IMG/VR virus record: IMGVR_UViG_3300012009_000091
Coordinates: 103,070-167,069 of that record
Strand: one strand, 5' to 3'
DNA length: 64,000 nucleotides
From: a virus
The notes below the pieces were generated by a model, which did not search any database, was not told where the DNA came from, and saw nothing but the letters and a program-made list of their open reading frames with translations. Each line of letters opens with the position of its first letter. The first letter of the stretch is position 1. Positions 3,787 through 64,000 of this stretch are shown one piece after another. The position numbers and the translations under genes are program-made.

Positions 3787-3966
3787 ATGAGTGTTGTGAC
3801 ACCTGACAAAGAAATGGAACTCGATGAGGCCATTGATCACGCCAAAGAGGCGGCACACCGACTAGCCAAAGAAGGCTGCGATGAATGTTCAAGAGAACAC
3901 GCACAATTGGCCGAGTGGCTGGAAGAACTACGTCGCCTCCGACAAGGACGAGAGGAGTGTGGATGA
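3787..3966 (+). CDS. small phage protein (59 aa, below track cutoff)
   Basis: MSVVTPDKEMELDEAIDHAKE...CDECSREHAQLAEWLEELRR; RBS; ATGA overlap with the next gene. Confidence 0.7.
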   Translation: MSVVTPDKEMELDEAIDHAKEAAHRLAKEGCDECSREHAQLAEWLEELRRLRQGREECG

Positions 3967-4187
3967 CTACATTGACGGTAACGCGGAAGGATCAAGAATG
4001 CGTCGTCTTGGTTCTTCCTTCTGGAAAGTACATCACTGTCCGCGTTTGTGCGCGGGTCAAAGGAGGAACACGGCTCGTTATTTCAGCGCCAGAAGATGTG
4101 CGAATTTGGCGTGAAGAAGTCCTCGTGAAAGCAACTGAACAACAGATGGAAGAATCATGCAAACTAATAGAAAACCCCAAGACCTAA
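3963..4187 (+). CDS. csrA: CsrA/RsmA-like RNA-binding protein
   Basis: MTTLTVTRKDQE...ITVRV...TRLVISAPEDVRIWREEV matches the CsrA pattern L.LTR..GE....I.V.V....VRIG..AP..V.I.REE; RBS GAGGAG. Confidence 0.7.
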   Translation: MTTLTVTRKDQECVVLVLPSGKYITVRVCARVKGGTRLVISAPEDVRIWREEVLVKATEQQMEESCKLIENPKT

Positions 4188-7493: not shown

Positions 7494-7641
7494 AGCAGTC
7501 TATGTTTATGCAGACGTGCCCAGTGCATAACTAGTTCTGAGAGCGAGGTCTGTTCCACGGATCTCGTCTTAGCGTCTGTTGCAGATGTCATTGAAGCCAG
7601 TGTACACTTTCGCTGAGTAGTTGTGGGACGCGGAGAATCAC

Positions 7642-9310: not shown

Positions 9311-9535
9311 GTGAATTTCGATGACCTGATGAGTCGAATCGAGCGACTTCAAGAACAGTGGCAAGCTGTCGAAGGTGATTACAAGCCCGCGAAGAAGCGA
9401 CGTCAGCGCTTGAGTAAGCGGATCTCCAGACTTCATGCTCAATTGAAGGATGGATTGGCAAATCAACAATTTGTCGATCAACAACGTTTCCATTCCATGG
9501 AAGAGAATCTCCGTTCACTGGGAGTGATCAGTTGA
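9311..9535 (+). CDS. coiled-coil hypothetical protein
   Basis: RBS AGGAGG, GTG start. Confidence 0.6.
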   Translation: MNFDDLMSRIERLQEQWQAVEGDYKPAKKRRQRLSKRISRLHAQLKDGLANQQFVDQQRFHSMEENLRSLGVIS

Positions 9536-15881: not shown

Positions 15882-16934
15882 ATGAACGTACATTTCATCT
15901 ACAAGCCGCGCAGTGGAGACCGAGTTTTTGCCATGCGACCGACTCCCGGAATCGCGGTCGTCAAATATGACAACGGCTGCCGGCATGCGGCCGGTGGAAT
16001 TTTGCTCGGGTGGGATGCCGCCCAACCAGGCGAATGGTGGAGGTCCACCGCAAAAGCGGTGGTCAGTGCCGTGGTGGAGTGCTGCGGCGGCCTTGCTTGG
16101 GACGAGCAAGGAACGATCTGGATGATCATCCCGGAGAATGGTGCAGACACCGCCCTACGCCTTATCGAGGAAATCAGGGAGATCGATGTGTCTGGCCAGA
16201 GCGCTGGGTGGCTTGGCAATCGAGTGCGTCTCGGCTTGTGGGTAGAAATCGTCGGTACCCGTCTCGGGTGGGCGGCCGATAGCGGGCCAGCTCCAGTCAC
16301 TCGCCGTCGACACGATGACGGCAAGTGGGAATACATCGCCCGCCCCCCCGGGGCGGTGGTGGTCTGGACGGCTCCGTGGGCGTCCGAGGATGCCTGCGAG
16401 GAGGTCGAGGCGGAGGTCGAGGCGGAGGCGGAGGTCGAGGCGGAGGCGTTGGTCGTTACTCCGACCCTGTTGGAGATGGCGGGCGGAATAAACCTCTGCG
16501 GGCATCATGCCTACGTCACAATCGACATCCTGCATGATCTGCTGTCCCGAGGCATCAATCTCCGGGGCGCAATCCGTGTCTTGCGCGTCGACGCATCCAC
16601 TCCGCAGGAGTGGCGCGATCGCGCTCGAGCCGAAGACGCGGTAATCCGCGAAGCGAGAGAGGACGGCCTCCGGGTTTCCCCGGAACATCTTGCTGCCCAC
16701 CCTGATATCTGCTGGACGGTGGGCACGATACGATCTGAACTGGCCAAAGCTCCGTCCAGCGACGGACTGATCGGCTGCCAGGAGGTCGAGGCGGCGGCGA
16801 ACATTATGCGCGAGGATCGAGTCCGGGCGGTGACGGTCCTGGCACTGCATCAGTGCCAGTCGTACGCCACGTGGGTCGAGCACGCCATCCATGGAATGGC
16901 CGATCTCGCGGCTCCCATGCCAGAAAGGTGGTAG
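15882..16934 (+). CDS. hypothetical protein, paralog A
   Basis: N-terminus nearly identical to the next gene; EVEAEVEAEAEVEAEA linker. Confidence 0.8.
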   Translation: MNVHFIYKPRSGDRVFAMRPTPGIAVVKYDNGCRHAAGGILLGWDAAQPGEWWRSTAKAVVSAVVECCGGLAWDEQGTIWMIIPENGADTALRLIEEIREIDVSGQSAGWLGNRVRLGLWVEIVGTRLGWAADSGPAPVTRRRHDDGKWEYIARPPGAVVVWTAPWASEDACEEVEAEVEAEAEVEAEALVVTPTLLEMAGGINLCGHHAYVTIDILHDLLSRGINLRGAIRVLRVDASTPQEWRDRARAEDAVIREAREDGLRVSPEHLAAHPDICWTVGTIRSELAKAPSSDGLIGCQEVEAAANIMREDRVRAVTVLALHQCQSYATWVEHAIHGMADLAAPMPERW

Positions 16935-28178: not shown

Positions 28179-28414
28179 AGCGGCTTTTACAGGAGTCGCT
28201 GGCGAAGATCAACACATTAGAAAAGCAGATCAACAATCTCATTCAGGCGTACACACAAGTGATGCTGCATGGAGGGGCGGATCCAGACCAGTTGATCGAC
28301 GATCTTTATTTTTTACTGACCTATGAAGTGCCGGGAGAGCCGTCTCCGATGGTTCGGGAAACAATTCAGGCCATCGTCCGAGCAATACAAGAAATACAAC
28401 AGGAGGACCATTGA
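28154..28414 (+). CDS. hypothetical protein
   Basis: RBS GGAG; coupled to the ligase gene. Confidence 0.6.
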   Translation: MSHKIEQVKRLLQESLAKINTLEKQINNLIQAYTQVMLHGGADPDQLIDDLYFLLTYEVPGEPSPMVRETIQAIVRAIQEIQQEDH

Positions 28415-30321
28415 TGGATGTCGAACAATTGGTGCAAAAGATTCAGTACCATCGAGTGAAGTATTGGGCAGGCGAACCCGTGATTTCCGATACAGAGTTC
28501 GATCGGCTCGTCGAACAGCTACGGGAACTCGATCCCAACAATGTCATCCTGAATGAGATCGGGGTGGGGTTCATCGAAGGCCGACGGAAAGTGACTCATG
28601 AAATGCCTATGCTGTCTCTCCAGAAGTGCTACACAGTTGAGGACCTGTTGCGGTGGCGTAACAAGCTGTCGGATCCTGATTTGATTGTTAGCCCGAAGAT
28701 TGACGGTCTAGCTGTGGCGTTGCGTTACCGCAGTGGGACGTATGTTCAAGCCATCACTCGTGGAGATGGGCTAGTTGGGGATGACATCACGGAAAATATG
28801 CGGTTCGTGTCTGGCGTCGCTATGCATATTGATGAAGTTCAGGATATCGAAATCCGGGGCGAAGTGTTTATTCCTCGATCTGTTTTCGAGAACCTGTTTG
28901 CAGAGGAGTATAGCAACCCGCGAAATCTCGCGGTAGGTGCATTGAAACGCGACAACGCCAAAGAGACAGCGAAATTCTACTTGGTTTTTCAGGCCTATGA
29001 TGTTCTGGGAAAAGAGTTTTCTTTCGAGACGACCAAGTTCGACTGGCTGGCTTCAGTCAATTGCGTACCAGTTCCGGTAGAACTCGTTACGTCAGAAAAG
29101 GAGATCCGCGCTTTCCTTTTGACAACGCCTGATCAGTACCTTTATGAGATAGATGGCTTTGTGTTCAAAATTGCGAAGTGCTCTCTTCAGAAAGAGCTCG
29201 GCGCTACACGACATCATCCTCGTGGATCAATGGCGTACAAGCTTCAGGGGGATACCGGTGTGTCGTCAGTCAAGGCAATAGAGTGGCAAGTCGGCCGTAC
29301 AGGGGTGCTGACACCGGTCGCTCAGATCAAGACGATTACACTCTCTGGTGCAGTAATCAACCGAGTTAGTTTGCACAACACCAGTATCATGCGAGAGCTG
29401 GACAGCGATCTCCGGCTCTTGAATGCTTCGGTTCAAATTACGCGGCGCGGCGGGGTGATTCCCTATATCGAAAAGATGTTGACCCCTGGGGAGCCTCTTC
29501 AGGTCCCTCTGTATTGTCCGGAATGCAACGGCATCACATTCTTCGCAGACAGGGACCTGCTGTATGCAGAACACGCAATCGATTGTGCTCCGATTCTCTT
29601 GGGGACTCTGCAGCACTTCCTCAAGGTTCTTCGAGTCAAAGGATTCGGTCCTGCGATTTTGGAATCGTTGATTGAAGGCGAGTTCATTCAAACACCTGCA
29701 GACCTCTTGGGATTGACGGAAGACGACTTGCTATCCGTTGATCGGATAGGCGGAAAGCAGGCGAAGAAGCTTCTCGCTCGACTTCAAGAGGTGCGGCAGG
29801 TCCCTTTGTCAACTTTCCTCGTAGCACTAGGGATTCCCAATCTTGGGATTCAGCTCGCTTCGACATTGGCTGACCGCTACCCAACTTTGGGGGATTTGGC
29901 CAAAGCTAAAGAAGAAGATCTCCTTCAATTGCCTGGGGTAGGTGAGGTGGGATGCCGGATCGTCCAAGAGTGGCTTCCAGCTAAGAAGTACCTTATTCAG
30001 GACTTACTTAGACATATCCAAATCGAAGAAAATGTAAAGGACGAGGAGCCGATTGGGTCACTTCCCCTTGCAAACAAGTCTTTCTTGTTCACCGGTAAGC
30101 TACAGTACGCTACTCGATCTAGCGCTGAAGAGATTATCAAAAATCTCGGTGGGTCAATTGTATCTGCTGTGACTCGCAATTTAGACTATCTTGTAGTCGG
30201 AGAAACGTCTGGAGAAAGTGCCAAGCTCAAGCGAGCTCGAATGGTTCAGAGTGCTAAAGGAGCTCTTGAAATCATTGATGAGGATCAGTTTGCGCTTCTC
30301 GTTGGGAAGCGCAACCTGTAG
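28414..30321 (+). CDS. ligA: NAD-dependent DNA ligase
   Basis: PMLSLQK, KIDG, TRGDG, EIRGEV, NPRN, WQVGRTG, HhH repeats, C-terminal BRCT. Confidence 0.97.
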   Translation: MDVEQLVQKIQYHRVKYWAGEPVISDTEFDRLVEQLRELDPNNVILNEIGVGFIEGRRKVTHEMPMLSLQKCYTVEDLLRWRNKLSDPDLIVSPKIDGLAVALRYRSGTYVQAITRGDGLVGDDITENMRFVSGVAMHIDEVQDIEIRGEVFIPRSVFENLFAEEYSNPRNLAVGALKRDNAKETAKFYLVFQAYDVLGKEFSFETTKFDWLASVNCVPVPVELVTSEKEIRAFLLTTPDQYLYEIDGFVFKIAKCSLQKELGATRHHPRGSMAYKLQGDTGVSSVKAIEWQVGRTGVLTPVAQIKTITLSGAVINRVSLHNTSIMRELDSDLRLLNASVQITRRGGVIPYIEKMLTPGEPLQVPLYCPECNGITFFADRDLLYAEHAIDCAPILLGTLQHFLKVLRVKGFGPAILESLIEGEFIQTPADLLGLTEDDLLSVDRIGGKQAKKLLARLQEVRQVPLSTFLVALGIPNLGIQLASTLADRYPTLGDLAKAKEEDLLQLPGVGEVGCRIVQEWLPAKKYLIQDLLRHIQIEENVKDEEPIGSLPLANKSFLFTGKLQYATRSSAEEIIKNLGGSIVSAVTRNLDYLVVGETSGESAKLKRARMVQSAKGALEIIDEDQFALLVGKRNL

Positions 30322-30357: not shown

Positions 30358-30455
30358 GCTAAAAGAAGAGTACAAATAGAATTGACTCTTCTTTTACGAA
30401 ATAGAACGTCTCAATCCCCATCTGAACGGGGCACGTAGACTAGCCTTTCTCGTTA
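30358..30455 (-). ncRNA. candidate ~100-nt small RNA
   Basis: GTATAAG motif at 30460-30466 (minus); terminator AAAAGAAGAGT/ACTCTTCTTTT+AG; no ORF between them. Confidence 0.45.
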
Positions 30456-30611
30456 CTTACTTATACCTATTTCCAACGCAAAATGCACCCGCATTCTTGA
30501 CGATCACTTTGTCTCTAGAGGACAATCAAATTGCGGTGAGTACGTTCTGGTCCTCCAGTACTCGTCGTCAGGAGCCCTTGGCCCAGGGCTCCTAACTTCC
30601 TTGCATTGATG

Positions 30612-30646
30612 TTAAAAAGGAAGGGGCCTGACGATCCAGGCCCCTT
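30612..30646 (-). terminator. intrinsic terminator of the island operon
   Basis: AAGGGGCCTG/CAGGCCCCTT stem then CCTTTTT on minus. Confidence 0.7.
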
Positions 30647-30692
30647 GGGTTTGAGTGCAGAAGATGACTAGCCTTCTGCACTCGAGACGACC

Positions 30693-31091
30693 TTAGAGCC
30701 ACCAGTCGCCGCGGTATACGCGGATTTCCTGGCGCTCTTCGGCCTCTTCCTCTTCCTCTGTGTCGGTCCACTTTGAGGCCGTCCAGTACTGGTTCGGTTT
30801 CCACCGAACCTGGACGGTCTCGTGAACCTCTTCTTCCTCTTCCTCTTCCACCACCCACCAAGGTTGGTGGCGGTCGAGGACCCGAACCCAGTCCTGGATG
30901 CTTCGGGCCTCGAGCTCACGCGCCACGCGCGTAACGTGCTCGAGTTCCGCAGTCTGGACCAGACCTATCTGATGTAGGTCTTGCGCGATGCAGGACGCGT
31001 CGCGCAACAAGTCCATTCCGTGCATCCAGGCCCGGATACGCCGGGCGCTGATGACCTTGACCTCCCGTCGGTCGGTTACCGTGATATGCAC
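30693..31091 (-). CDS. hypothetical protein with poly-Glu tracts
   Basis: 132-aa ORF overlapping the end of the upstream gene. Confidence 0.6.
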   Translation of the reverse strand: MHITVTDRREVKVISARRIRAWMHGMDLLRDASCIAQDLHQIGLVQTAELEHVTRVARELEARSIQDWVRVLDRHQPWWVVEEEEEEEVHETVQVRWKPNQYWTASKWTDTEEEEEAEERQEIRVYRGDWWL

Positions 31092-32797
31092 AGTAACTCC
31101 CCCAACGAAGGGGTCAGCCCCTCAAGGCGCTTGGGCATCATCTCGTCGTTGAGATGTGCTCGACGCTCATACGCGTCGTCGAAGATCGTTACGGGCACCC
31201 CGTAACGATCTTCTAGCTCCCCCTGATGAGCTGAGTCATCCCAGGGCCGGGTAACCACGAAGAGACGGACGACTACCATCTCCTCGCTTCTCCAGCCCTC
31301 GGGCCCGGACTCTGTTCGCCCGTATCCCCGCACCTCTCCGATCACTCGTGCGTGGTCGGAGAGGCAATTAATGCCCCACTCCGCGTGAAGCCCGCCCACG
31401 TTTCGCACGCGTGCGGACTCCGGGAAGTGGTGGGCGACCATTACCGGCCGCTCCCAAGCAGTTCCCTGCTGGGGGCTCAGTAATATATCGTCAACCAGAT
31501 TCCACACACGCCAACCGACAAGGGACCCGTCTTCCGGGTCCTCTTTTGGGCGTGCAGCACGGATCTCTCTTTCCCTGACGTCCATGGACGTCAGCAGAGA
31601 ATACCATGCTTTATGGATCTGTGGGCGCAGGGAGCGGATCAGATGCCCTCGCTGGGCCCGGACCAACTTGGCGCGCCGCGCCCTTGAACTTCTGGCCCCC
31701 AGCAGAGGGTCTGATCGGAAGGCACCCGACTCAAGGCGATCTCGCCTCGTCCGCTGCGCGTTCATGGTTTCAGCCATGAACGCCACCAAGTCCTTTACGG
31801 TCTTGATGGCGGCCGTGTGCGTCCTTGGGCTGTTTACCGCCCAGGCCACCCACGATCGAGGCGAGGCATACGCCTCGGCTGCCTCGTGGCATATCTTCTC
31901 CAGGCTTACGGGACCGGCGTCCAGCGTCCAAACGAGGCCGCTTTGCGACCACCATTTGGGGTGAAGGCCGCACTGTTTTATGGTGCGAACCTCTTCGACC
32001 CCGATTCGTAGTCTGATTTTGCCCTTGTCATAGGCAACTTTTACGTCGCCATTGACTATTGCAGTCATCAACTTATCGTCGGGGTCCACCCACCGGAACC
32101 ATTTCAGCCACTTTCGGGCGGGCACGAGTGCCTGCTCTAACTGTGGCCGAATCGGCTGGAGACGCACCCACTCTGCGTGGAGACGCTCCAGCCGTGCCCA
32201 GAGACTCTCATCGTTCGGGCATACCAATTCGTCCCAGACGGCGCGGAGGAATGCGCCGCTCATCCGGGACAGCCGCTTCAACCACACGGTCTTAGTGTCG
32301 TGTGGGAGCGGCATAGGCTCACGCGCCCGGAGTTTCCTGCTCAGGCGCAGGATCGCCCGCACGCGCGTGCGGTTTCCGGGCCAGATGGGGCGTTCTGGCA
32401 GCATCGAGGCTAACGCCTTCGGATACTGCTCTGCCTTGATGCCAAGGCAGAACGCCCTGATCGCGGCTGAAGGGTCACAAGTGTACGGTGACCCCAACCG
32501 CGATGAACGCTGTTGAGTGGCGAGCCAATAGGCCACCCACTCATCCCACTTTTGGATGAGTCGGTTTGGCGGCAGCAGATTCCATCCTGCTTTCGCCAAA
32601 GCCCAGTCCACGCGATCCGCCGACCGGATTATCCCCAAACCTCGGAGCACGATCCGACCGTAGTCGGATGCGCTCTTGATTTTTCGGGCGGGCTTTGGGG
32701 AATAGCGCGCTCGAAAGGCCTCAGCGACAGTCCAGTCGCCGACTAGCCAATCCGCCTCTTCCTGGCGGAGCCAGGCGGCGGATGGAGTTGCACTCAT
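31076..32797 (-). CDS. hypothetical protein; C-terminal GWR...GLHA...VIGEV.G.G...GWR domain
   Basis: 573 aa; RBS AAGGAGGAG; GC-rich. Confidence 0.75.
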   Translation of the reverse strand: MSATPSAAWLRQEEADWLVGDWTVAEAFRARYSPKPARKIKSASDYGRIVLRGLGIIRSADRVDWALAKAGWNLLPPNRLIQKWDEWVAYWLATQQRSSRLGSPYTCDPSAAIRAFCLGIKAEQYPKALASMLPERPIWPGNRTRVRAILRLSRKLRAREPMPLPHDTKTVWLKRLSRMSGAFLRAVWDELVCPNDESLWARLERLHAEWVRLQPIRPQLEQALVPARKWLKWFRWVDPDDKLMTAIVNGDVKVAYDKGKIRLRIGVEEVRTIKQCGLHPKWWSQSGLVWTLDAGPVSLEKICHEAAEAYASPRSWVAWAVNSPRTHTAAIKTVKDLVAFMAETMNAQRTRRDRLESGAFRSDPLLGARSSRARRAKLVRAQRGHLIRSLRPQIHKAWYSLLTSMDVREREIRAARPKEDPEDGSLVGWRVWNLVDDILLSPQQGTAWERPVMVAHHFPESARVRNVGGLHAEWGINCLSDHARVIGEVRGYGRTESGPEGWRSEEMVVVRLFVVTRPWDDSAHQGELEDRYGVPVTIFDDAYERRAHLNDEMMPKRLEGLTPSLGELLCISR

Positions 32798-32889
32798 TTG
32801 TGCTCCTCCTTGGGCGCTTTTGCGCCCAGTTTTTGTCTTCGTTTGATACGTATCCCGTTTATACCAAACGTATCCCTCGTCTCACTACC

Positions 32890-33600
32890 GGGGCTTTGAG
32901 TGTGCCTCCACACTCCCACGTGAAACTCGATTGCGCGAGGTAGGACCATCCTATCCTCTGCAGGTCAGCTTCGTGGCCGATAGCTTCCGAGTATGCTGAT
33001 GATTGACCTGATTCACAGTGTCCAATTGTGAATCGCCATCAGCCGAAATGGGCGTGGCCAGCCCTCATGCAGTAAATTAGTGATCCGGCTTTATTGGGCT
33101 CCGGATTACGTTCTGCATATTGTTTCGTCACTGTGGTGCCACTTTCCACAGCTGTTTCTAGGGCAAGCTTCATCACTAGCTTGCAAGGATGCCTGACAGT
33201 GGACTACTGTCAGACTTTCAGAAGGCTTCTCATCTCATTACTAGAAGCAGGCTAGACTCCGTTCATGTAGACAAGTCGCATCTGTCCTTCTGATAGATCC
33301 GGTGATGTCGACTCTATTCAGAAGGCTCTACACTTCTATAAAGACGGGGGGTTAGTCATCCCCCCGGATGTTGCATCTGGGATGCCTCCCATAAACCTTG
33401 TAGGAAGTCCTACAAAGCTTACGGGAGGCACGCCCCCTTTCGGGGGCGCCTCCTTCTTCCTCATGCCCCAAAGGGGCATCTTGTGCAGCGGTGTCAGAAG
33501 CGCCTTACTGCTTCTGGCCTACTGCTTTGGGACAGCGACCTTTGTTCCGCCTCCCTGGGTGCGTAACCACCCGTCCCCCGTTTTAACGGGGGAGTTTGCC
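32890..33600. ncRNA. long hairpin-dense non-coding tract A (candidate large structured RNA)
   Basis: about 18 consecutive stems, no credible ORF; 22-bp stem at 33383-33430 has 3 G-U pairs on minus; GAAA loop on minus at 33431-33448. Confidence 0.6.
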
Positions 33601-33622
33601 TGTGTCGCGTCATCATCGAGCT

Positions 33623-33907
33623 CTACGCGGACGCCACAGGGGACCAATCCCCTGCGGCGAACAGGACCCCAAAAGGGATCCCGGGAGCCCAAATGAGGAG
33701 GCTGCCATCCGTAAGGATGGCGAGCTCCTCCTCGCCGGGCTCCTCTGCCGGCAATCTGCCGGCAGAGTAGAGCATCTCGATGATCAGCTGAGACGCGTAC
33801 TGATAACTCAGCCGCATCTCATCGCTGAACGCGACCTGTGAGAACGCCACTGGGTGGCACTCCCCACAGGTCGCGATTTCAACGATCGCGATCTCAAGAT
33901 TTTTCAT
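33623..33907 (-). CDS. hypothetical protein
   Basis: RBS GGAGG before MKNLEI; CGEC motif. Confidence 0.55.
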   Translation of the reverse strand: MKNLEIAIVEIATCGECHPVAFSQVAFSDEMRLSYQYASQLIIEMLYSAGRLPAEEPGEEELAILTDGSLLIWAPGIPFGVLFAAGDWSPVASA

Positions 33908-34007
33908 GTTCCTCCCGAACATGAGTTTCGTCCCTCACGCGGAACGGCGGATCGGGCGTATTATAGGGCCGCCCAATCTTCTACCCTCTGCGGCATAGCC
34001 GCATATA

Positions 34008-34103
34008 TGCAAGCCCTGGGAATCGAACCCAGGCGACGTTTGTCGCGTCCTTGGCTTGCGGTATGGGATATTGAGTCCCATCAATGCAACTGGGCAGGTC
34101 TGC
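34008..34103 (-). tRNA. tRNA-like element (non-canonical or pseudo-tRNA)
   Basis: T-arm CTGGG-TTCGATT-CCCAG and 7-bp acceptor GCAAGCC/GGCTTGC-A; no normal D-arm; upstream TGGGA-CTCAATA-TCCCA hairpin (CAA). Confidence 0.45.
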
Positions 34104-34423
34104 ATATTCCTTCTACTAGGCCTTGGGAGTGGGGTGGCGCTTTTCACAGCCTCTCGTGACCATATGGTCAACCGCCTGCTCCGTACCGTTCGATTACTCA
34201 ACACGACACGCTACTTTCGTGTTGAGGGCAACTTTTTCTGACGGGGTATTGCCAAGGTCCCCCATTACGCACCCACACCAAGTTACCCCCATTTTCGCTC
34301 AGGATTTCTCTGAACTTAGGGCCCTGGGCCTTTTGGCCTATACTTGTCTTCAGCTGTTAGGGATAGCTGTTAACCAGGGTTGATGGGATGGTTATACTTG
34401 CCGCCGAATATAGTCGGCGGCGG

Positions 34424-35587
34424 CTATGTTGGGTCGACGGCGATGACCGTCCCCAGCTTCATAGCCGGGGAATGGGTCATCGCCACCGTCGCCCCCACCC
34501 CTGGCTGGTAACAGGCCAGCCACGGCGTATTGTGGTACGCCATGGCTAGACTGATCGTCAGCCAATTGGGGCCTCGTCCACTTAGGACGATCCCCATTCC
34601 CGGCTGCACAGCCGGGGGGGTGACGTCGTTCAGATCGTCGACGGAGAATACTCCGCCGACGATCTCAAACGTGACGACGGCGAACTCGTCCCTCTCCTCA
34701 ACGGAGAAGGACAAGTTCGCCCCAGAGCCTTCAGATGAAGGCTCTTGACACCCGATTGGGACTGTGCCCAATCGGGGGTCGTTCACGCTTGCGGCTGCCG
34801 GGTGGCAGCCGTGAACGACGGACAGACCCAACCACGCGGGGCTGGGTCCGTCAAAAACGACGTGGTCGTCGGCCCCGAAGCCCCACCCACGGAGGGTGGT
34901 GTCGATTTTGGGAAGGTCTGTGCCTTCCCAATTGATCGACGAAACCACCCTGCCGTTGGGCAGGGTCTTCGTTATCGGAGCTTTTCCCAGCAGCTCTGAG
35001 AGCTGCTGGGTGGTGATGGTGGTGTCCATCGCCGTCTCCAGTGTCCCGGCGCTGAAATCGCACCGGGACAAGACCCGCTGGGCCAGTCTTTGCATTACTG
35101 GCCCAGCGTTGACCGTTCCCCGGTGAAGCCCGACAACCGTCCCCTCTAGAGGGTGGGTGTCGGGGGAGACGGTCTCCTCTCCGGCTAGCCGGCTTTTTAG
35201 GAGGGCTATACACCGTAGCCCGAGGTCTTCCCCAAAACGCCGCCACTCGTCCATAGCTTCGTCTTTTGACGAAAGTACTACGAACGCGTCACAACGCTTG
35301 AAAATTTCCTCGTTCTGTGGTGTAATTCGTCCCCCCACATCGACCAGTGTCAGAGGTAGGCCGACATTCTCCAATCCTGTCAGGACATAGTCCATGAATG
35401 AATTGGAAAAGTCGCCCTTACGTCTGATACGCTGGACGAGTTCTTGGGGGGCCGAATTGGCCCACGTACCTTCCCCGTCCGGACAAGCCCGGAACAAGAA
35501 GGTACCTTCCCGTGGAAGCAATTGCTTCAGGGAAGCGAAAAACACCGACTTTCCGGAATGAGGAGGACCGCAGATGATTACTTTCAT
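34424..35587 (-). CDS. csx3: P-loop NTPase fused to two Csx3/Crn3 (CRISPR ring nuclease-like) domains
   Basis: GPPHSGKS, ACPDGEG.W, LVDVGG; Csx3 motifs HGCHPAA...DPRLG and GIVLSGRGPNWL...YH..PWLACY.P..G..V..THS. Confidence 0.8.
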   Translation of the reverse strand: MKVIICGPPHSGKSVFFASLKQLLPREGTFLFRACPDGEGTWANSAPQELVQRIRRKGDFSNSFMDYVLTGLENVGLPLTLVDVGGRITPQNEEIFKRCDAFVVLSSKDEAMDEWRRFGEDLGLRCIALLKSRLAGEETVSPDTHPLEGTVVGLHRGTVNAGPVMQRLAQRVLSRCDFSAGTLETAMDTTITTQQLSELLGKAPITKTLPNGRVVSSINWEGTDLPKIDTTLRGWGFGADDHVVFDGPSPAWLGLSVVHGCHPAAASVNDPRLGTVPIGCQEPSSEGSGANLSFSVEERDEFAVVTFEIVGGVFSVDDLNDVTPPAVQPGMGIVLSGRGPNWLTISLAMAYHNTPWLACYQPGVGATVAMTHSPAMKLGTVIAVDPT

Positions 35588-35589
35588 CC

Positions 35590-36485
35590 TACTCCTCTCA
35601 CCAGAGAGTCATTTGCGCTCTACTCTTTCTGCTTGCACCCTACTGCAAGTGGAAATTTCAAGCTCCTGGGAAGACCTCCCAGTCGGGCAATTGACGAAAA
35701 TTGTTTTTACGTGACGCTCGTCAATTTGGTGCGTCACTATAAATACGCGGTTCTCGCCGCGTAAATAAAAATGGTTTAGCATCTGGTCAGGTAGGAAAGA
35801 CCAGGGATCATCAGGAAGATGATCTCCGCAAAGGACTTGCGGACCGTGCCCCGAGGATCGGGGTCTTTACAGAACTCATCCAGCATGTTGCATGCTGGGC
35901 AACCTACAAGGCGGACCGGGTTCTGATTCCAGTCCGACAGGAGTGCATTACGCTGCACAAACGACCACCATAACCTGGCAGTGGAGTCCGGAAATTCGCT
36001 TCCGGAACGGGTGGATCTTACCGAGTAACCACCATCTCGGCCCATGTTTAATGCTATTGGGGTGCAGGGACCTCTACGCGAGGTTGGCGGTGTAGATTTA
36101 GCTCTACACGAACTGATACTTGGTATTTTAGTCTGTAGTACCTTCAGACTATCCAGCTATGGCACTGGATGGCCAACAATCTAAGCCTGATTGCCCAAGG
36201 CAGCTCTTACCCAGAACTTGGGGAGTTCATACCCAGAACTCATAGGGCCTCCCATTGTAAAGGCGGGGTTGGTGCGCCTGCTCGTATAACTCCCTGAGCA
36301 AGGGGTTGGCACTTGGTAATCTGCCTTAGTGCCAGAGGCAGTTCATAACCCTGAACGGGGGCCTCCCATTGTAAAGGCGGGGTTGGTGCGCCTGGGGAAT
36401 ATTCGTGTGCCGAAGGGTGCGCGGTTGGGATCGGTGTTCTCCTTTTGGAGCCGATGTGCGCAAGTGGCACGTGGTAAGTTCCCTT
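35590..36485. ncRNA. long hairpin-dense non-coding tract C (candidate large structured RNA or leader)
   Basis: more than 20 short stems, pseudoknot, 36-nt repeat pair; GTATAAG promoter at 36491 on minus. Confidence 0.6.
36245..36394. repeat. perfect 36-nt direct repeat x2
   Basis: GGGCCTCCCATTGTAAAGGCGGGGTTGGTGCGCCTG at 36245-36280 and 36359-36394. Confidence 0.95.
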
Positions 36486-36490
36486 AAATA

Positions 36491-36497
36491 CTTATAC
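36491..36497 (-). promoter_or_regulatory. GTATAAG phage promoter motif (one of at least 17 copies)
   Basis: recurrent motif, typically 22-37 nt upstream of start codons. Confidence 0.7.
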
Positions 36498-36517
36498 TTA
36501 TCAGAGTCTTTATGGAT

Positions 36518-36572
36518 ACTAAAAGTTCAGGGTGGAGGTTTACAGAAGTTCCCAGATGCCACCCTGAACTTT
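36518..36572 (-). terminator. intrinsic terminator
   Basis: AAAGTTCAGGGTGG/CCACCCTGAACTTT followed by TTAG on minus. Confidence 0.7.
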
Positions 36573-36574
36573 GA

Positions 36575-36781
36575 CTAACGGCGGTTTTTACGCCGCCGGC
36601 GTCGTCGTCGGGAATTGTTTTCGGAGTGCGCATCCTCCCGACTCAAACGCGCACCCTCTTCTCGAAGTGCTTGGCGCTCCTCTGCCCAGAGGTCGCGCGC
36701 CGGTCCCCGCCGGACCGCGTCGATCACGGCAGGGGCGGCGTGCTTCGCCAGGGCGAGAAGCGCCTTCTTCTTTAGAGACAT
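36575..36781 (-). CDS. small basic protein with Arg tail
   Basis: GTATAAG at 36811, RBS AAGGAGG, own terminator. Confidence 0.7.
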   Translation of the reverse strand: MSLKKKALLALAKHAAPAVIDAVRRGPARDLWAEERQALREEGARLSREDAHSENNSRRRRRRRKNRR

Positions 36782-36811: not shown

Positions 36812-37519
36812 TTATACGTTTTGCCAACGAACGCCGGCAACTTGATGATCGTTTACATGTTGTGCCTTGAGTTCACATTGTACGCCGTAGAACGTTGCAG
36901 GACATTGATGGATAGAGGGGTCAAAACACGCCCGGCAGCGAGGCTCATAGATGTCCTCGGCACCCGGAAGAATCCGTTCGGAGGAGATTATCGTGCGGTG
37001 ATTGTAGATCGCTTGTTTTCCGCAGACACAGCACTGTGCGTACTTCATGAAGATTGTGTCTGCTACAGCCATCAATCGTAGAATAGGAAAGAAAGGCTGT
37101 CCTATGTAATCGGACATAAGTCCGACAACATAGACGTTGATACCAAGATGGTTCACTAGTGACATACAGACGTTCACTAGATCTTTGGGGAACATGTGCG
37201 CTTCTTCAATAGCGATGGTATTCACGGAAATGGCTCGTTCCATCTCCATGACGCATTTTGGTATTTGGAGTGGGTGTTCGAGTGGGATAGCTTTCCGAAC
37301 ACGTCCGTTGTGTGTTCGGATGACGTCTTGTCCGTCTCTAACATCCTTCTGGGGCTTGAAGATGGGTATGGCTCTATCTTCGAGGCTGTCGAACAGTAAT
37401 TCGGTTTTCCCTCCCCACATGGTGCCTGTGATTACGGTAAGTATTCCTGGAGTCCGCGTAGACGGTTCATCCATGTTGGATGAATCATTGGACTTTCCAT
37501 TTCCTCGCTCTCGGTCCAT
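36812..37519 (-). CDS. tdk: thymidine kinase (type II)
   Basis: GTMWGGKT, IEEAHMF, GL.SDY.GQPF, CCVCG, YEPRCRAC. Confidence 0.92.
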   Translation of the reverse strand: MDRERGNGKSNDSSNMDEPSTRTPGILTVITGTMWGGKTELLFDSLEDRAIPIFKPQKDVRDGQDVIRTHNGRVRKAIPLEHPLQIPKCVMEMERAISVNTIAIEEAHMFPKDLVNVCMSLVNHLGINVYVVGLMSDYIGQPFFPILRLMAVADTIFMKYAQCCVCGKQAIYNHRTIISSERILPGAEDIYEPRCRACFDPSIHQCPATFYGVQCELKAQHVNDHQVAGVRWQNV

Positions 37520-58210: not shown

Positions 58211-58885
58211 TTAGCGGCGGGACCGCTTCTTCCTGCTCTTCTTCCGGCTCTTCCTCCGGCCCTCGTCCCGGTCCTCGTCCCGGCGGTCGTTCCGCCGGTC
58301 GACAGCACTCTCTAACCTTTCGACCTGTTTGGCCGTCTCCGTGGCGCTCTGGAACGCCTTGGCCAGGTTGGACTGGCCCAGGCCCACGCTCTCGGCGTGG
58401 GCCCTCAGGTGCTCCCCCTGCGTAGCCACCTCCTGGTGGATGTTTGCCAGGAGGGCCTTCTTGGCATCATCACTCTCCTGCTGTCCCAGGAGGTTGAGAT
58501 GCGCCTCCAGACGGTCATGGGCCTTCTGGAGGGTCGTCAGGCCGTCATTGGACGACCCTAAGCGGGTAAATTCCTGCGTTAGCAGGAGCACCCGCTCCGT
58601 CACCAGGTCTGGCATGGCCTCGACGTGCCCCCGGAGGGCCGCCGTCTCGCAGAGGATATCCTCTGCGAGATCATCGAGGTCGTCTACCTTATGGCGGACG
58701 TCCCCGATGACCAACCGGTTCCAGATCGCCAGGCCGACGCCGGCGGCGCTTGTCACGGCGCCGCCGATGAGCAGGCCCTTGTCGAGCCCGCTCAGTTTTG
58801 TGGTTTGGCCTTGCGGCCGGAGGTTTGTTGCTTCGACACTCTCCCCTGCGGAGGGGAGAGCTGTGACGTTGTTAGGATTTCCCAT
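58211..58885 (-). CDS. TM + coiled-coil protein with basic tail
   Basis: RBS AAAGGAG; GC-rich. Confidence 0.7.
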   Translation of the reverse strand: MGNPNNVTALPSAGESVEATNLRPQGQTTKLSGLDKGLLIGGAVTSAAGVGLAIWNRLVIGDVRHKVDDLDDLAEDILCETAALRGHVEAMPDLVTERVLLLTQEFTRLGSSNDGLTTLQKAHDRLEAHLNLLGQQESDDAKKALLANIHQEVATQGEHLRAHAESVGLGQSNLAKAFQSATETAKQVERLESAVDRRNDRRDEDRDEGRRKSRKKSRKKRSRR

Positions 58886-58903
58886 CTTCTTTTTCTCCTT
58901 TGT

Positions 58904-59233
58904 TCACTTCGCCAAGTTGGCGAAGCGATTCTCCAGTTGACGTCTCGACGCGTCGAACTCGTCTCTGAGCTGCTCCCAGCGACGTCTCGACGCGTCTAAC
59001 TCTTCTTGGATGGCCCGGAGAGCCTTGTCGATCTCCTCGGACCATCCTTCTAATTCTTTGACTCGGCTGCGGGTCCCCCCGTTGGACACAAGGGCCCAAA
59101 TGGAGAACCCGACAGCCCCAACACTGGCCATCAGGGCTACTCCTGATGACCAGCCCATTTCTGCGGCGTCGTACGCCGGACGGTGCGGTGGTTGGTGCAC
59201 CACAACGACCGGTCCGCCGCCGTCTTGTTCCAT
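58904..59233 (-). CDS. TM + coiled-coil protein
   Basis: RBS GGAGGAG; GTATAAG at 59301; repeat E.DASRR x2. Confidence 0.7.
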   Translation of the reverse strand: MEQDGGGPVVVVHQPPHRPAYDAAEMGWSSGVALMASVGAVGFSIWALVSNGGTRSRVKELEGWSEEIDKALRAIQEELDASRRRWEQLRDEFDASRRQLENRFANLAK

Positions 59234-59365
59234 AGGCTCCTCCGCGTATGGTAAGTTTTGGTTATGCTACTAAAAATATTTAGCAGCGCGTCTCTACCCA
59301 CTTATACGGCGAAAGACGAAAAACTTCTTGACATTGGCAAGTTTGATAGATTAGGTTTTGCTTTG

Positions 59366-62101: not shown

Positions 62102-64000
62102 ATGATGGACAGTCAAGATATCAACGCGATCCTCGACGGCCAACAAGACGAGATGTGGGGAATGTCCGGTATGGGCGCATCTCCGTCGTATGGAGAGGAG
62201 TTCTCTGCCTCCGCTATGAGCGGCGTTGCGGAGATCGGCTTGCCGGCTATGGGATTTGGGGCAGCTGTTACTGGCTGGTCGGCTGCAACCCGCATGGGAG
62301 TCGATCCTGCTTTCGGAGCTCCTCGAGCTGGCTGGCGAATGGGGTCCAAAGTGGCCAAAACCTTTCGTGCGGGGGCCATTGCAAAAACTGCGTTGAGTGG
62401 AGCGGGCCTAGCTGTTGGTATGTTTACTGGCATACTGCCTGGGCTTGCTCTTGACGCTGCTGTGCGCGGGGTAGGTGGAAACATAATTGAGGGGGCTCAA
62501 TCCTATACGGCTACCAATCGATTTATGCAGCAGCTCGGTAATGAAACCGCTGGCTTTGGTGGACAATCCATTCTGGGAGTCGGAGGCGCCGCTTTTCAGA
62601 ACGCACAAGAGTGGACTCTTGAGCATGGGGCCGACGCGATGTCCAGTATGGGGGAAAGTACTGGTTTAGGGACGCAAGGCATTATGCAGATGGGCGGAGA
62701 GATGGCTACCAGCGGAATGCTGGGTGAGGTTCGCAATCCGCAAGAGTTCCTCTCTAAGTTCCGTGAGAAGCTTGGTCAAGTTCGTGAGGTGTCTCGTACT
62801 TTAGACATCTCTCTGCAAGAAGCAACGGCAGTGATGCAGCAGCTTCAAGATGCTGGCATTTCATCCGAAGGGCAGGTCGGCTTGAGTACGCGTGCGGGTG
62901 CAATTTCGGGGCTGACAGGTCAATCACTCGACGTTGTTATGGGCGCTGGTATGGAGGGGGTTCAAATGGGCGCCCAACTGGGCATAGGGGCGGACCGGTC
63001 TTTTCAGGTCGGGATGCAGAATCTCAGTTCGTCGTCTGTCATGTCTGGATTGGGGGCGATTGATCCGCGTACATTGGCTCGTTATGGGGGCGCTACGGGT
63101 CTTGCCCAACAAATGACTCAGATCGATCTGCAGATGGGTATGACCCACGGAGGTCAAGAACTCATCTCGCGGCTTGTCAATGAAGAGGGTTCTGGTTTCG
63201 ATTTTGCGCGTATGGGGACCGCGCGGGGAGGAGAACGTCCTGGGAGTCGGCGAGACATTGACCCGTACGCGATGGCCGATCTTCAAGAGGACTTTCTCGA
63301 TAACCAACGGGGCATTGTTCTGGGACGTATCTCGCAGCTGCGAGGAGAGTACACGGACGATAAGGAGTTCCATCGAGCTCAATATAGCTTTCTGCGAGAG
63401 ATGGGTATTGACGATCCACAGATGCAACAGGCCTACCTCCAAAATCTCCGATCTGCACCGACTATGGATCTGTTAGAAACGGGCCAACAGATCGAGAGTG
63501 ACGAGCAGATGGCCGCTGAGATACGGTCTCAAGCGCGTCAGGCGTTTAGTCGCGTATTTTCGGATATGGGTGATTGGATCAATGAAGCCATCTCTCAGCC
63601 CATCCAAGAGTTTGGCCGGACGATGGCCCGAACATTCGAGGAAGCTGGACAGGCCATCAGTGAGGCGTATAGCGGACGGCCTGATAGTCCTACTGGGATG
63701 ATTGCTCCGGATGTAGCTGCTCTACAAGAATATGGCCGCGGCGTATGGATGGGGAATTTCGATCAAGGATATTCTCGAATGGAGATCGCCGATTTTATGG
63801 AAGGCGGCGGCGCATTTGGTACGTTCCAAGAAGAAGATCGTCGAGGGTTTTTTAGTCGAAGTGGTTTGTTGGCAACGGAAGATAATCGCCTCGCGGCTTG
63901 GGCAGTAGAGCAGGAATCAGAAGGTCGGTTGGATTTGAGTGGGATGGGAATTCGAACAGCTCGGACAGAGGCACAGCGTCGCCGTCTTGAAGATCGTGGA
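62102..64000 (+). CDS. tape-measure-like protein (5' partial, runs off the window; absent from the ORF track)
   Basis: translated by hand: MMDSQDINAILDGQQDEMWGMSG...; G/A/M/Q-rich helical; no stop in the part I translated, and the track omits it, consistent with no in-window stop. Confidence 0.7.
   Translation, partial: MMDSQDINAILDGQQDEMWGMSGMGASPSYGEEFSASAMSGVAEIGLPAMGFGAAVTGWSAATRMGVDPAFGAPRAGWRMGSKVAKTFRAGAIAKTALSGAGLAVGMFTGILPGLALDAAVRGVGGNIIEGAQSYTATNRFMQQLGNETAGFGGQSILGVGGAAFQNAQEWTLEHGADAMSSMGESTGLGTQGIMQMGGEMATSGMLGEVRNPQEFLSKFREKLGQVREVSRTLDISLQEATAVMQQLQDAGISSEGQVGLSTRAGAISGLTGQSLDVVMGAGMEGVQMGAQLGIGADRSFQVGMQNLSSSSVMSGLGAIDPRTLARYGGATGLAQQMTQIDLQMGMTHGGQELISRLVNEEGSGFDFARMGTARGGERPGSRRDIDPYAMADLQEDFLDNQRGIVLGRISQLRGEYTDDKEFHRAQYSFLREMGIDDPQMQQAYLQNLRSAPTMDLLETGQQIESDEQMAAEIRSQARQAFSRVFSDMGDWINEAISQPIQEFGRTMARTFEEAGQAISEAYSGRPDSPTGMIAPDVAALQEYGRGVWMGNFDQGYSRMEIADFMEGGGAFGTFQEEDRRGFFSRSGLLATEDNRLAAWAVEQESEGRLDLSGMGIRTARTEAQRRRLEDRG

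Follow-up and report, generated by a model that had tools for sequence, protein, structure and literature searches.

What a phage gains from a 6-kb minus-strand block in which a Csx3-family gene alternates with long tracts lacking open reading frames (ORFs) is the question raised by positions 30358-36497 of the DNA analysed here, a 64,000-nt window at the very end of a viral contig 167,069 bp long (IMG/VR record IMGVR_UViG_3300012009_000091). The contig carries direct terminal repeats, and because near-identical copies of the phage (99.96-100%) were present in two runs of one microbial-mat metagenome (ERR2407577 and ERR2407578), an assembly accident could be ruled out for its sequence. The block, hereafter the island, is flanked by genes for an NAD-dependent ligase (28411-30321, plus strand) and for a thymidine kinase (36812-37519, minus strand) and a thymidylate kinase. 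Its base composition is foreign-like, with 54-62% GC per kilobase, above the ~50% of the phage genome. A first-pass annotation, made from the sequence, had proposed that large structured non-coding RNAs (ncRNAs) act here as decoys or scaffolds together with a signal-degrading Csx3 protein. Our analysis points elsewhere. What the island holds is a phage-borne AAA-Csx3 gene in a conserved expression frame, with an extreme RNA-structure signal that is strand-specific and includes coding sequence. We read it as a variable accessory island, probably serving counter-defence, whose messages are selected to resist ribonucleases (RNases) and access by CRISPR RNAs (crRNAs), and we give this reading about an even chance of being correct.

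The three ORF-less tracts described in the first-pass annotation are present, as gaps of 825 nt (tract 1, 32798-33622), 501 nt (tract 2, 33923-34423) and about 900-990 nt (tract 3, 35588-36574) that amount to ~2.3 kb together. The tracts stayed closed when TAG was read as Gln or TGA as Trp, none of their short ORFs matched Pfam, and a PHROG scan of three of these (35776-36045, 33935-34204 and 36240-36470) was also empty. For folding, z-scores were calculated for whole tracts against dinucleotide shuffles and for genes additionally against synonymous-codon shuffles, which keep the protein, and 120-nt sliding windows were scanned. All three tracts folded better than dinucleotide-shuffled sequence (z -12.7, -4.4 and -5.0 for tracts 1, 2 and 3, respectively). 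The hairpin richness claimed for them was thus borne out as such, but the coding parts of the island proved to be more structured. Over 977 nt of csx3, the folding energy was -601.8 kcal/mol against -392.2 +/- 8.8 for shuffles generated by the folding program itself (z -23.8), and 975 nt of a gene for a 573-aa protein reached z -13.3, compared with +0.17 for 975 nt of the ligase gene by the same shuffle method. The sliding scan gave z values of -5 to -11 in csx3, -5 to -10 in a 99-aa ORF and mostly 0 to -4 in tracts 2 and 3, with a genome-wide mean of -0.5 and 6.6% of all windows below -3.

Synonymous shuffling led to the same picture. For csx3, -62.0 kcal per 120 nt was obtained against -39.7 +/- 1.1 for the shuffles (z -21), followed by the 573-aa gene (z -11.4), the genes for the 99-aa and 68-aa proteins (p99, -6.4; p68, -5.8) and a 132-aa gene (-3.8). 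The flanking thymidine kinase, thymidylate kinase (dTMP kinase) and ligase genes ranged from -0.3 to -2, and two core genes that are GC-rich themselves reached only -2 to -3. The csx3 messenger RNA (mRNA) has a minimum free energy (MFE) of -712 kcal/mol over 1164 nt, equivalent to -0.61 kcal/mol per nt, and leaves 24% of its bases unpaired in the predicted fold, compared with about -0.32 kcal/mol per nt and about 40% unpaired bases in core genes. Contiguous stems of 10-19 pairs occur in the 3' half of csx3, and its hairpins sit inside conserved domain segments, made mainly by codon choice and a few conservative substitutions. After correction for GC content, just two outliers were left in the 167 kb, namely the island (30.5-36.0 kb) and a short unit, likewise rich in GC, at 58.2-59.2 kb. 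These features are real and far beyond chance, and we found no published description of such a strand-specific, coding-inclusive signal in the literature searched. Since the strongest structure lies inside genes, it is a property of whole-island transcripts and not of separate RNA genes.

The strand on which this structure was selected could be read from the helices themselves. Single mismatches inside Watson-Crick helices on the minus strand comprised 41 G-T (G-U in RNA) and 17 A-C, where composition predicts parity, and this excess indicates that the structure has been selected in the sense (minus-strand) RNA. Promoter motifs, terminators and ribosome-binding sites agree with the minus strand as sense, as had been proposed in the first place. 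The island might still owe its hairpins to events at the DNA level, either as a by-product of template-switch (quasi-palindrome) mutation where transcription is heavy or as bait for spacer acquisition with a preference for hairpins, the resulting crRNAs being directed at poorly accessible targets. Both strands did beat their shuffles, and type III-A adaptation is known to prefer hairpin-forming DNA (PMC8860593). However, the 41:17 ratio and the lower folding energies of the minus strand indicate selection on RNA, and a mutational by-product would not be limited to cargo genes at one slot in two phages, so that a DNA-level origin seems very improbable.

The gene with the lowest z-scores (34424-35587, minus strand) encodes a 387-aa protein with a P-loop domain and tandem Csx3/Crn3 units, in agreement with the first-pass assignment. 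It matched Pfam PF09620 (Cas_csx3) in two stretches with 88.5 bits (cut-off 21, E 2.6e-25), NCBIfam TIGR02579 (Crn3/Csx3) with 89.9 bits (cut-off 55.4) and the PADLOC model AAA-Csx3 (PDLC01059) over residues 3-384 of 387 (E 1.8e-67). In Archaeoglobus fulgidus Csx3, the residues for binding and cleavage of cyclic tetra-adenylate (cA4) are S44-G45-R46, H57/H60, D69/R71 and H80 (PMC7371418). Unit 2 of the phage protein aligns with this enzyme (E 1.6e-15) and keeps SGRGP, H60 and H80, with Q and G at the positions of D69/R71; unit 1 retains the His-x-x-His and Asp-Pro-Arg-Leu-Gly motifs. All of the required residues are therefore present, divided over the two units. Thirteen homologues all show this complementary division, and no invariant residue is missing from the phage copy. 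Ring-nuclease activity is accordingly what we would expect of the protein, whose family assignment makes it a plausible signal-degrading counter-defence enzyme, as the first-pass annotation had suggested, and a likely anti-CRISPR.

The first-pass annotation had drawn attention to the fusion of a P-loop domain with two Csx3 units. Judged by its relatives, it is a known cellular architecture: 868 relatives of the same length were found, with top identities of 61% (a metagenomic sequence) and 58% (a Bipolaricaulota assembly, where it is annotated as ring nuclease Crn3/Csx3). With the AAA-Csx3/Crn3 proteins of type III loci (A. fulgidus Csx3, PDB 3WZI/6YUD; PMC7371418), the phage protein shares the full-length architecture, the SGRGP loop, the His pair, Asp-Pro-Arg and the late His. 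It differs from them in being phage-borne, in having no cas genes or CRISPR array noted nearby and in the massive recoding of its coding sequence into hairpins. It is thus the phage carrier that appears unusual. A tblastn search of 50,697 deposited phage records with the protein gave no homologue, and no Crn3 was reported from a published survey that covered 28,114 phage genomes and recovered AcrIII-1, Csx16 and Csx20 (PMC12409355). Viral ring nucleases act as anti-CRISPRs (PMC12409355), and the same role of removing cA4 is expected here as for AcrIII-1/Crn2, phage Csx16 and Csx20 and viral SAVED proteins. The predicted ring nuclease of the island comes from a different family, namely Crn3 with a P-loop domain.

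Hyper-structure as a general property of csx3 homologues was considered and, for the three loci tested, rejected. Synonymous shuffling of these, the closest examined, gave z values of -2 to -4, with an energy gap of 2-5 kcal compared with 22 in the phage gene, and their 120-nt windows lay at about 0 to -4. As these homologues are not comparably folded, the phage copy was recoded after, or apart from, those lineages. Some cellular copies have features of their own. In the Bipolaricaulota assembly (L006), a GC-rich AAA-Csx3 gene in AT-rich flanks lies between identical 19-nt direct repeats (7585-7603 and 9483-9501), which suggests a mobile cassette, and the non-coding flanks of the gene are strongly structured (z down to -12). 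Another AAA-Csx3 gene (L004/L005) adjoins one for a TrmB-family regulator, in a GC-rich patch amid AT-rich DNA.

Whether the ORF-less tracts belong with Csx3 could be examined by comparison with a second phage. Just one protein closely related to the ligase was found (56% identity), encoded on a 21.8-kb metagenomic contig (L010). On L010, nucleotide-metabolism genes are followed by the 9-mer GTATAAGTA, a 58-aa ORF homologous to p68, a terminator, a second copy of GTATAAGTA, an ORF-less leader of ~870 nt, cargo genes and the ligase gene. The cargo is unrelated, with a PcfJ-like 462-aa gene, small ORFs and no Csx3. It is also GC-rich and hyper-structured (PcfJ-like gene z -16.6, small genes -3.8 to -5.8), with L010 core genes at about 0 to -3.8. 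Just two non-coding segments are common to the island and L010. Module A (35775-35940, minus strand) is a six-hairpin element within tract 3 with 81% identity over 169 nt to L010 15218-15386, rising to about 97% over the last 105 nt even though the ligases are only 56% identical. Module B (30506-30593, minus strand) is a tail element with 79% identity to L010 12061-12149; its consensus fold has no broken pair and contains two conserved helices, a 9-bp hairpin and a helix of ~12 bp.

Comparison of module A with its L010 counterpart revealed five local compensatory pairs and four pairs altered on one side to or from G-U, and no broken pair. The compensatory changes lie in the first two hairpins; the last four stems are invariant and differ in their loops only. 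Coding is excluded by three 1-nt indels between the two copies, and an 89-aa ORF within tract 3 was likewise rejected as a gene on the grounds that 1-nt indels in L010 break its frame. By this pattern of changes, tract 3 does include a genuine structured ncRNA that a second phage has conserved. Given that the modules and the small protein occur in L010 with unrelated cargo and no Csx3, they belong to the frame of the slot and not to Csx3.

The conservation of synteny and folding expected by the first-pass annotation was therefore found for modules A and B and the frame, but tracts 1 and 2 have no homologue in any database or sequence searched. Nor did Rfam 15 give any match at gathering scores in the 64 kb, GOLLD, ROOL, HEARO and group I and II introns included; at E <= 5, the matches within the island were at chance level alone, with GOLLD and ROOL not among them. 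These results bear on the proposal of an anti-defence system in which Csx3 is joined by large independent ncRNAs, encoded by the tracts and serving as decoys or scaffolds. The tracts beat their shuffles, tract 2 contains a tRNA-like element and tract 3 a 36-nt repeat besides the conserved module, and precedents for RNA-based or RNA-assisted anti-CRISPRs exist in Racr (PMC10651486) and in AcrIIIA1 with its t(m)RNA fragments (PMC11662646). On the other hand, the conserved modules accompany different cargo in L010, the genes exceed the tracts in structure, and the flanks examined around cellular AAA-Csx3 genes contained neither CRISPR arrays nor any sequence in common with the tracts. GOLLD, ROOL and Racr are likewise ORF-less structured RNAs borne by phages near counter-defence genes, but the island has no Rfam match to offer, and its conservation across phages is confined to ~170 nt of tract 3 and the ~90-nt module B outside the tracts. 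We consider the ncRNA system unlikely; the ORF-less tracts would be better described as structured leaders and spacers of gene cassettes than as a separate decoy system.

A different function for module A is conceivable if it is read from the other strand. Hairpins 3-6 have UCCU loops on the minus strand and hence AGGA on the plus strand, and a plus-strand transcript could serve as a CsrB/RsmZ-like sponge that titrates phage or host CsrA. Such sponges share with module A the four tandem hairpins with a common four-base loop, three of the four AGGA loops are kept in L010, and a cluster of this kind is almost unique in the genome. Moreover, the phage encodes a CsrA-family protein itself (3963-4187, plus strand; Pfam PF02599, 34.6 bits against a cut-off of 27, E 1.8e-8). 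However, the GGA motif is present on the plus strand only, and the pairing favours the minus strand: of 40 pairs compared in the two phages, four are G-U and none is mismatched on the minus strand, and on the plus strand four are A-C mismatches and none is G-U. Promoter motif and terminators also point to the minus strand in both phages, and no plus-strand promoter was found. A CsrA sponge is thus, in our opinion, another improbable reading. A second, smaller cluster at 62613-62716, with three plus-strand GGA-loop hairpins (TCC on the minus strand) in a long plus-strand ORF, is probably coincidental. A conserved 7-mer that follows module A may also bring to mind the 3' ends of certain CRISPR repeats of type III, a likeness that we take to be coincidence.

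The expression signals around these modules are unusually regular. The 9-mer GTATAAGTA has eight exact copies in the 167 kb, all on the minus strand, where ~1.3 would be expected, and three of them, at 36817, 36497 and 30466, belong to this locus. The first (P1, 36809-36817) heads the small gene p68 (36575-36781, minus strand) and has a counterpart at the same position in L010. The second (P2, 36489-36497) contains the GTATAAG (36497-36491) that had been predicted to head the block as an early-type promoter, and it does head the island; the corresponding L010 copy, at 16016, precedes the leader. One-base variants are found ahead of tract 2 (GTATAAC at 34397 and GTATAGG at 34343) and of the 573-aa gene (GTATAAA at 32864). 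A terminator-like inverted repeat with a 19-bp hairpin follows p68 (36517-36577, minus strand; z about -4 to -5.7 in 120-nt windows), and another terminator-like hairpin, the sole element of its sort in the window, lies 3' of module A (35744-35763, minus strand). As for the terminators proposed to close the block, both were found: an intrinsic terminator with an 11-bp stem and a U run at 30646-30621, and two terminator hairpins at 30396-30360. The latter end an ORF-less unit of ~100 nt (30358-30466, minus strand), which resembles a small RNA gene, starts with the GTATAAGTA copy at 30466, has a fold z of -4.9 and is convergent with the ligase gene; it has no counterpart in L010. The simplest reading of this layout would be three cassettes, each with promoter, leader, gene or genes and terminator, at putative boundaries.

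p68 has an arginine-rich C-terminal tail and a strong ribosome-binding site; its place in L010 is taken by the 58-aa ORF, which is 48% identical and has an Arg-rich tail as well. Both phages have the order p68, terminator, promoter, hairpin leader, terminator-like hairpin and cargo, which recalls the N-nut system of lambda and the put system of HK022, where a small Arg-rich protein gene lies upstream, the leader forms hairpins and the operon is long and contains terminators. The likeness is one of gene order and composition alone, with no sequence relationship. It nevertheless makes expression control a serious rival explanation. In this scenario, p68 would bind the leader hairpins in the manner of lambda N and boxB, or of put, and let the phage polymerase pass hairpins and terminators; alternatively, the structure could serve Rho evasion or the throttling of costly cargo. 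Terminator-like sites inside the island (35763-35744 and 33366-33345) would suit such a function, as would the fact that all cargo genes are structured, whatever they encode. What it does not account for is the coding sequence: antitermination or Rho evasion would explain the leaders but not the synonymous recoding of well-translated genes to z -21. In addition, p68 has no family match. Serious as it is, we think this explanation much less likely to be right than wrong.

The reading that we prefer, a counter-defence island with protected messages, can be put as follows. The island occupies a fixed slot of the phage lineage between the ligase and nucleotide-kinase genes. Its conserved frame starts with a phage promoter and the gene for the small Arg-rich protein; a terminator and a second promoter follow, then a long leader that ends in the six-hairpin module, and the tail element. 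Inside this frame, promoter-leader-gene cassettes could be swapped. The cargo in the present phage is an AAA-Csx3 (Crn3) gene, which would derive from cellular type III CRISPR loci, and three genes without assigned function. The ring nuclease would destroy cA4 and so silence type III effectors, and it would be useful only if produced while RNases activated by cyclic oligoadenylates (cOA) are acting. The sense RNA of the island, coding regions foremost, appears to have been recoded into near-continuous hairpins, and paired RNA would be cut poorly by RNases specific for single strands, cOA-activated enzymes of the Csm6/Csx1 type among them, and would also be a poor crRNA target. Being poorly cut and poorly targeted, such an RNA could allow the antidote to be made even during active defence. 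We infer this protective role from pairing of the sense RNA that is strongest in coding sequences, affects unrelated cargo in both phages and spares core genes, GC-rich ones included. It is in line with the finding that, in vitro, type III systems detect structured target RNA up to 2-3 orders of magnitude less well, for which a possible relevance in vivo was suggested by the authors (PMC8682760).

Several points weigh against this explanation. The other island genes, and the cargo of L010 with no ring nuclease, are equally structured, so the pressure is not specific to Csx3 and may be one of expression control. Stable stems of 10-19 bp within a coding sequence should hinder ribosomes and could attract RNase III. 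The covariation rests on two sequences, as one relative was found. The examined stretch and flanks showed neither cas genes nor CRISPR arrays, although an absence of cas genes beside a viral Csx3 copy is expected and has no bearing on its enzymatic membership. Finally, the preference of type III-A adaptation for hairpin-forming DNA means that such sequence should attract spacer acquisition (PMC8860593), a price that the phage would pay for hairpins of this kind. A more far-reaching version of the preferred explanation holds that counter-defence mRNAs, notably those for ring nucleases, are 'armoured' by near-continuous duplex, which lets them evade collateral RNases and detection by type III and type VI crRNAs, and that the leader module and the Arg-rich protein form a dedicated device helping polymerase and ribosomes through. 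The antidote would then be translated while other RNA is destroyed. We regard this version as possible but doubtful.

The remaining parts of the island are described here for completeness. Its minus-strand genes, in transcriptional order p68, csx3, p99, the 573-aa gene and the 132-aa gene that overlaps it, each have a ribosome-binding site or a coding-type GC content at third codon positions (GC3). p99 (33623-33922, probable start 33905) has a ribosome-binding site and a GC3 of 0.76, and the 132-aa gene (30693-31091), whose start overlaps the stop of the 573-aa gene, has a GC3 of 0.75. p68, p99 and the 132-aa protein had no match in Pfam, NCBIfam and PADLOC, and PHROGs were empty for the latter two. 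The first-pass annotation had listed two unknown GC-rich genes, which are not both orphans. The 573-aa protein (31076-32797, with a ribosome-binding site) seemed one in a word-indexed search, whereas exhaustive HMMER searches retrieved 105 distant homologues, five of them at E < 1e-30, with shared N-terminal and C-terminal domains. It may therefore be assigned to an uncharacterised two-domain family of at least 105 members (P0242-P0345), with a widespread C-terminal domain of ~120 aa for which Pfam has no model. Pfam gave no match in the protein itself or in 10 homologues scanned, and a protein atlas search with it was empty. The two homologues that could be located sit on short, very GC-rich contigs.

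Within tract 3, the ORF-less leader RNA (35588-36490, minus strand; ~900 nt, z -5.0) contains an exact 36-nt direct repeat at 36245-36280 and 36359-36394 (114 nt from start to start, with a gap of 78 nt), and after each copy comes a small hairpin, alike in the two cases, whose loop is of the GGGUA type (region 36199-36394, minus strand). This 5' part is not common to L010, whose leader has a different internal duplication. A possible H-type pseudoknot with stems of 7 and 9 bp, read from the sequence at 35689-35737 (minus strand), ~100 nt upstream of csx3, is not kept in L010 either. Tract 2, with no homologue in L010, opens with a hairpin and the GTATAAC and GTATAGG variants and includes a tRNA-like mini-cloverleaf of 52 nt (34008-34059, minus strand) with a perfect 7-bp acceptor stem, one 5-bp hairpin and a canonical T arm, lacking the D arm. 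The element is present in the MFE fold of the tract and had a weak match to the Rfam tRNA clan (19.9 bits), but ARAGORN, which found no tRNA gene in the window or the whole genome, did not call it. In tract 1, hairpins are densely arrayed; one stem reaches 23 bp (33383-33430), and the tract also contains the terminator-like site at 33366-33345 and the GTATAAA variant. HIP1-type palindromes, with only three copies genome-wide, were rejected, and a loop motif common to all 94 island hairpins was sought and not found, module A excepted.

The second GC-corrected outlier of the genome is a GC-rich (0.61-0.64) unit of two genes at 58211-59233 (minus strand), with synonymous-shuffle z values of -7.9 and -5.6 and a promoter-like GTATAAGTg at 59307. 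Both genes encode a hydrophobic stretch that resembles a membrane helix by eye.

Searches for further examples of the island remained empty. Compared by blastn with the 50,697 phage records, it had no match, and scans of IMG/VR with Csx3, the ligase, the 36-mer, the tRNA-like element, a 20-mer of module A and the p68 alignment as queries gave no relatives. A single metagenome scan for the 20-mer of module A recovered L010, already known, and four chance matches within bacterial genes. Among known arrangements, phage morons and anti-defence islands come close, sharing a fixed slot, differing cargo, promoter-like motifs and terminators of their own and foreign-like GC content (here 58-62% against 50%). 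The present island departs from them in its structured leaders of 0.5-0.9 kb, its conserved frame of RNA and small protein and its hyper-structured coding sequences.

Phage-borne Crn3/Csx3 has not been reported so far and would be the fourth family in the set of viral ring nucleases. The degree of recoding is unusual as well: the gene of a conserved enzyme lies 24 standard deviations beyond shuffled sequence with every invariant residue kept, and the unrelated cargo of L010 has been recoded likewise. The leader module, the CsrA homologue of the phage and the Arg-rich protein together provide a testable handle on how the transcription system of this phage expresses accessory genes. If the structure does shield messages from RNA-targeting immunity, it would represent a new layer of the arms race between phages and their hosts, and may have practical bearing on Cas13 and type III tools and on the design of stable mRNAs.

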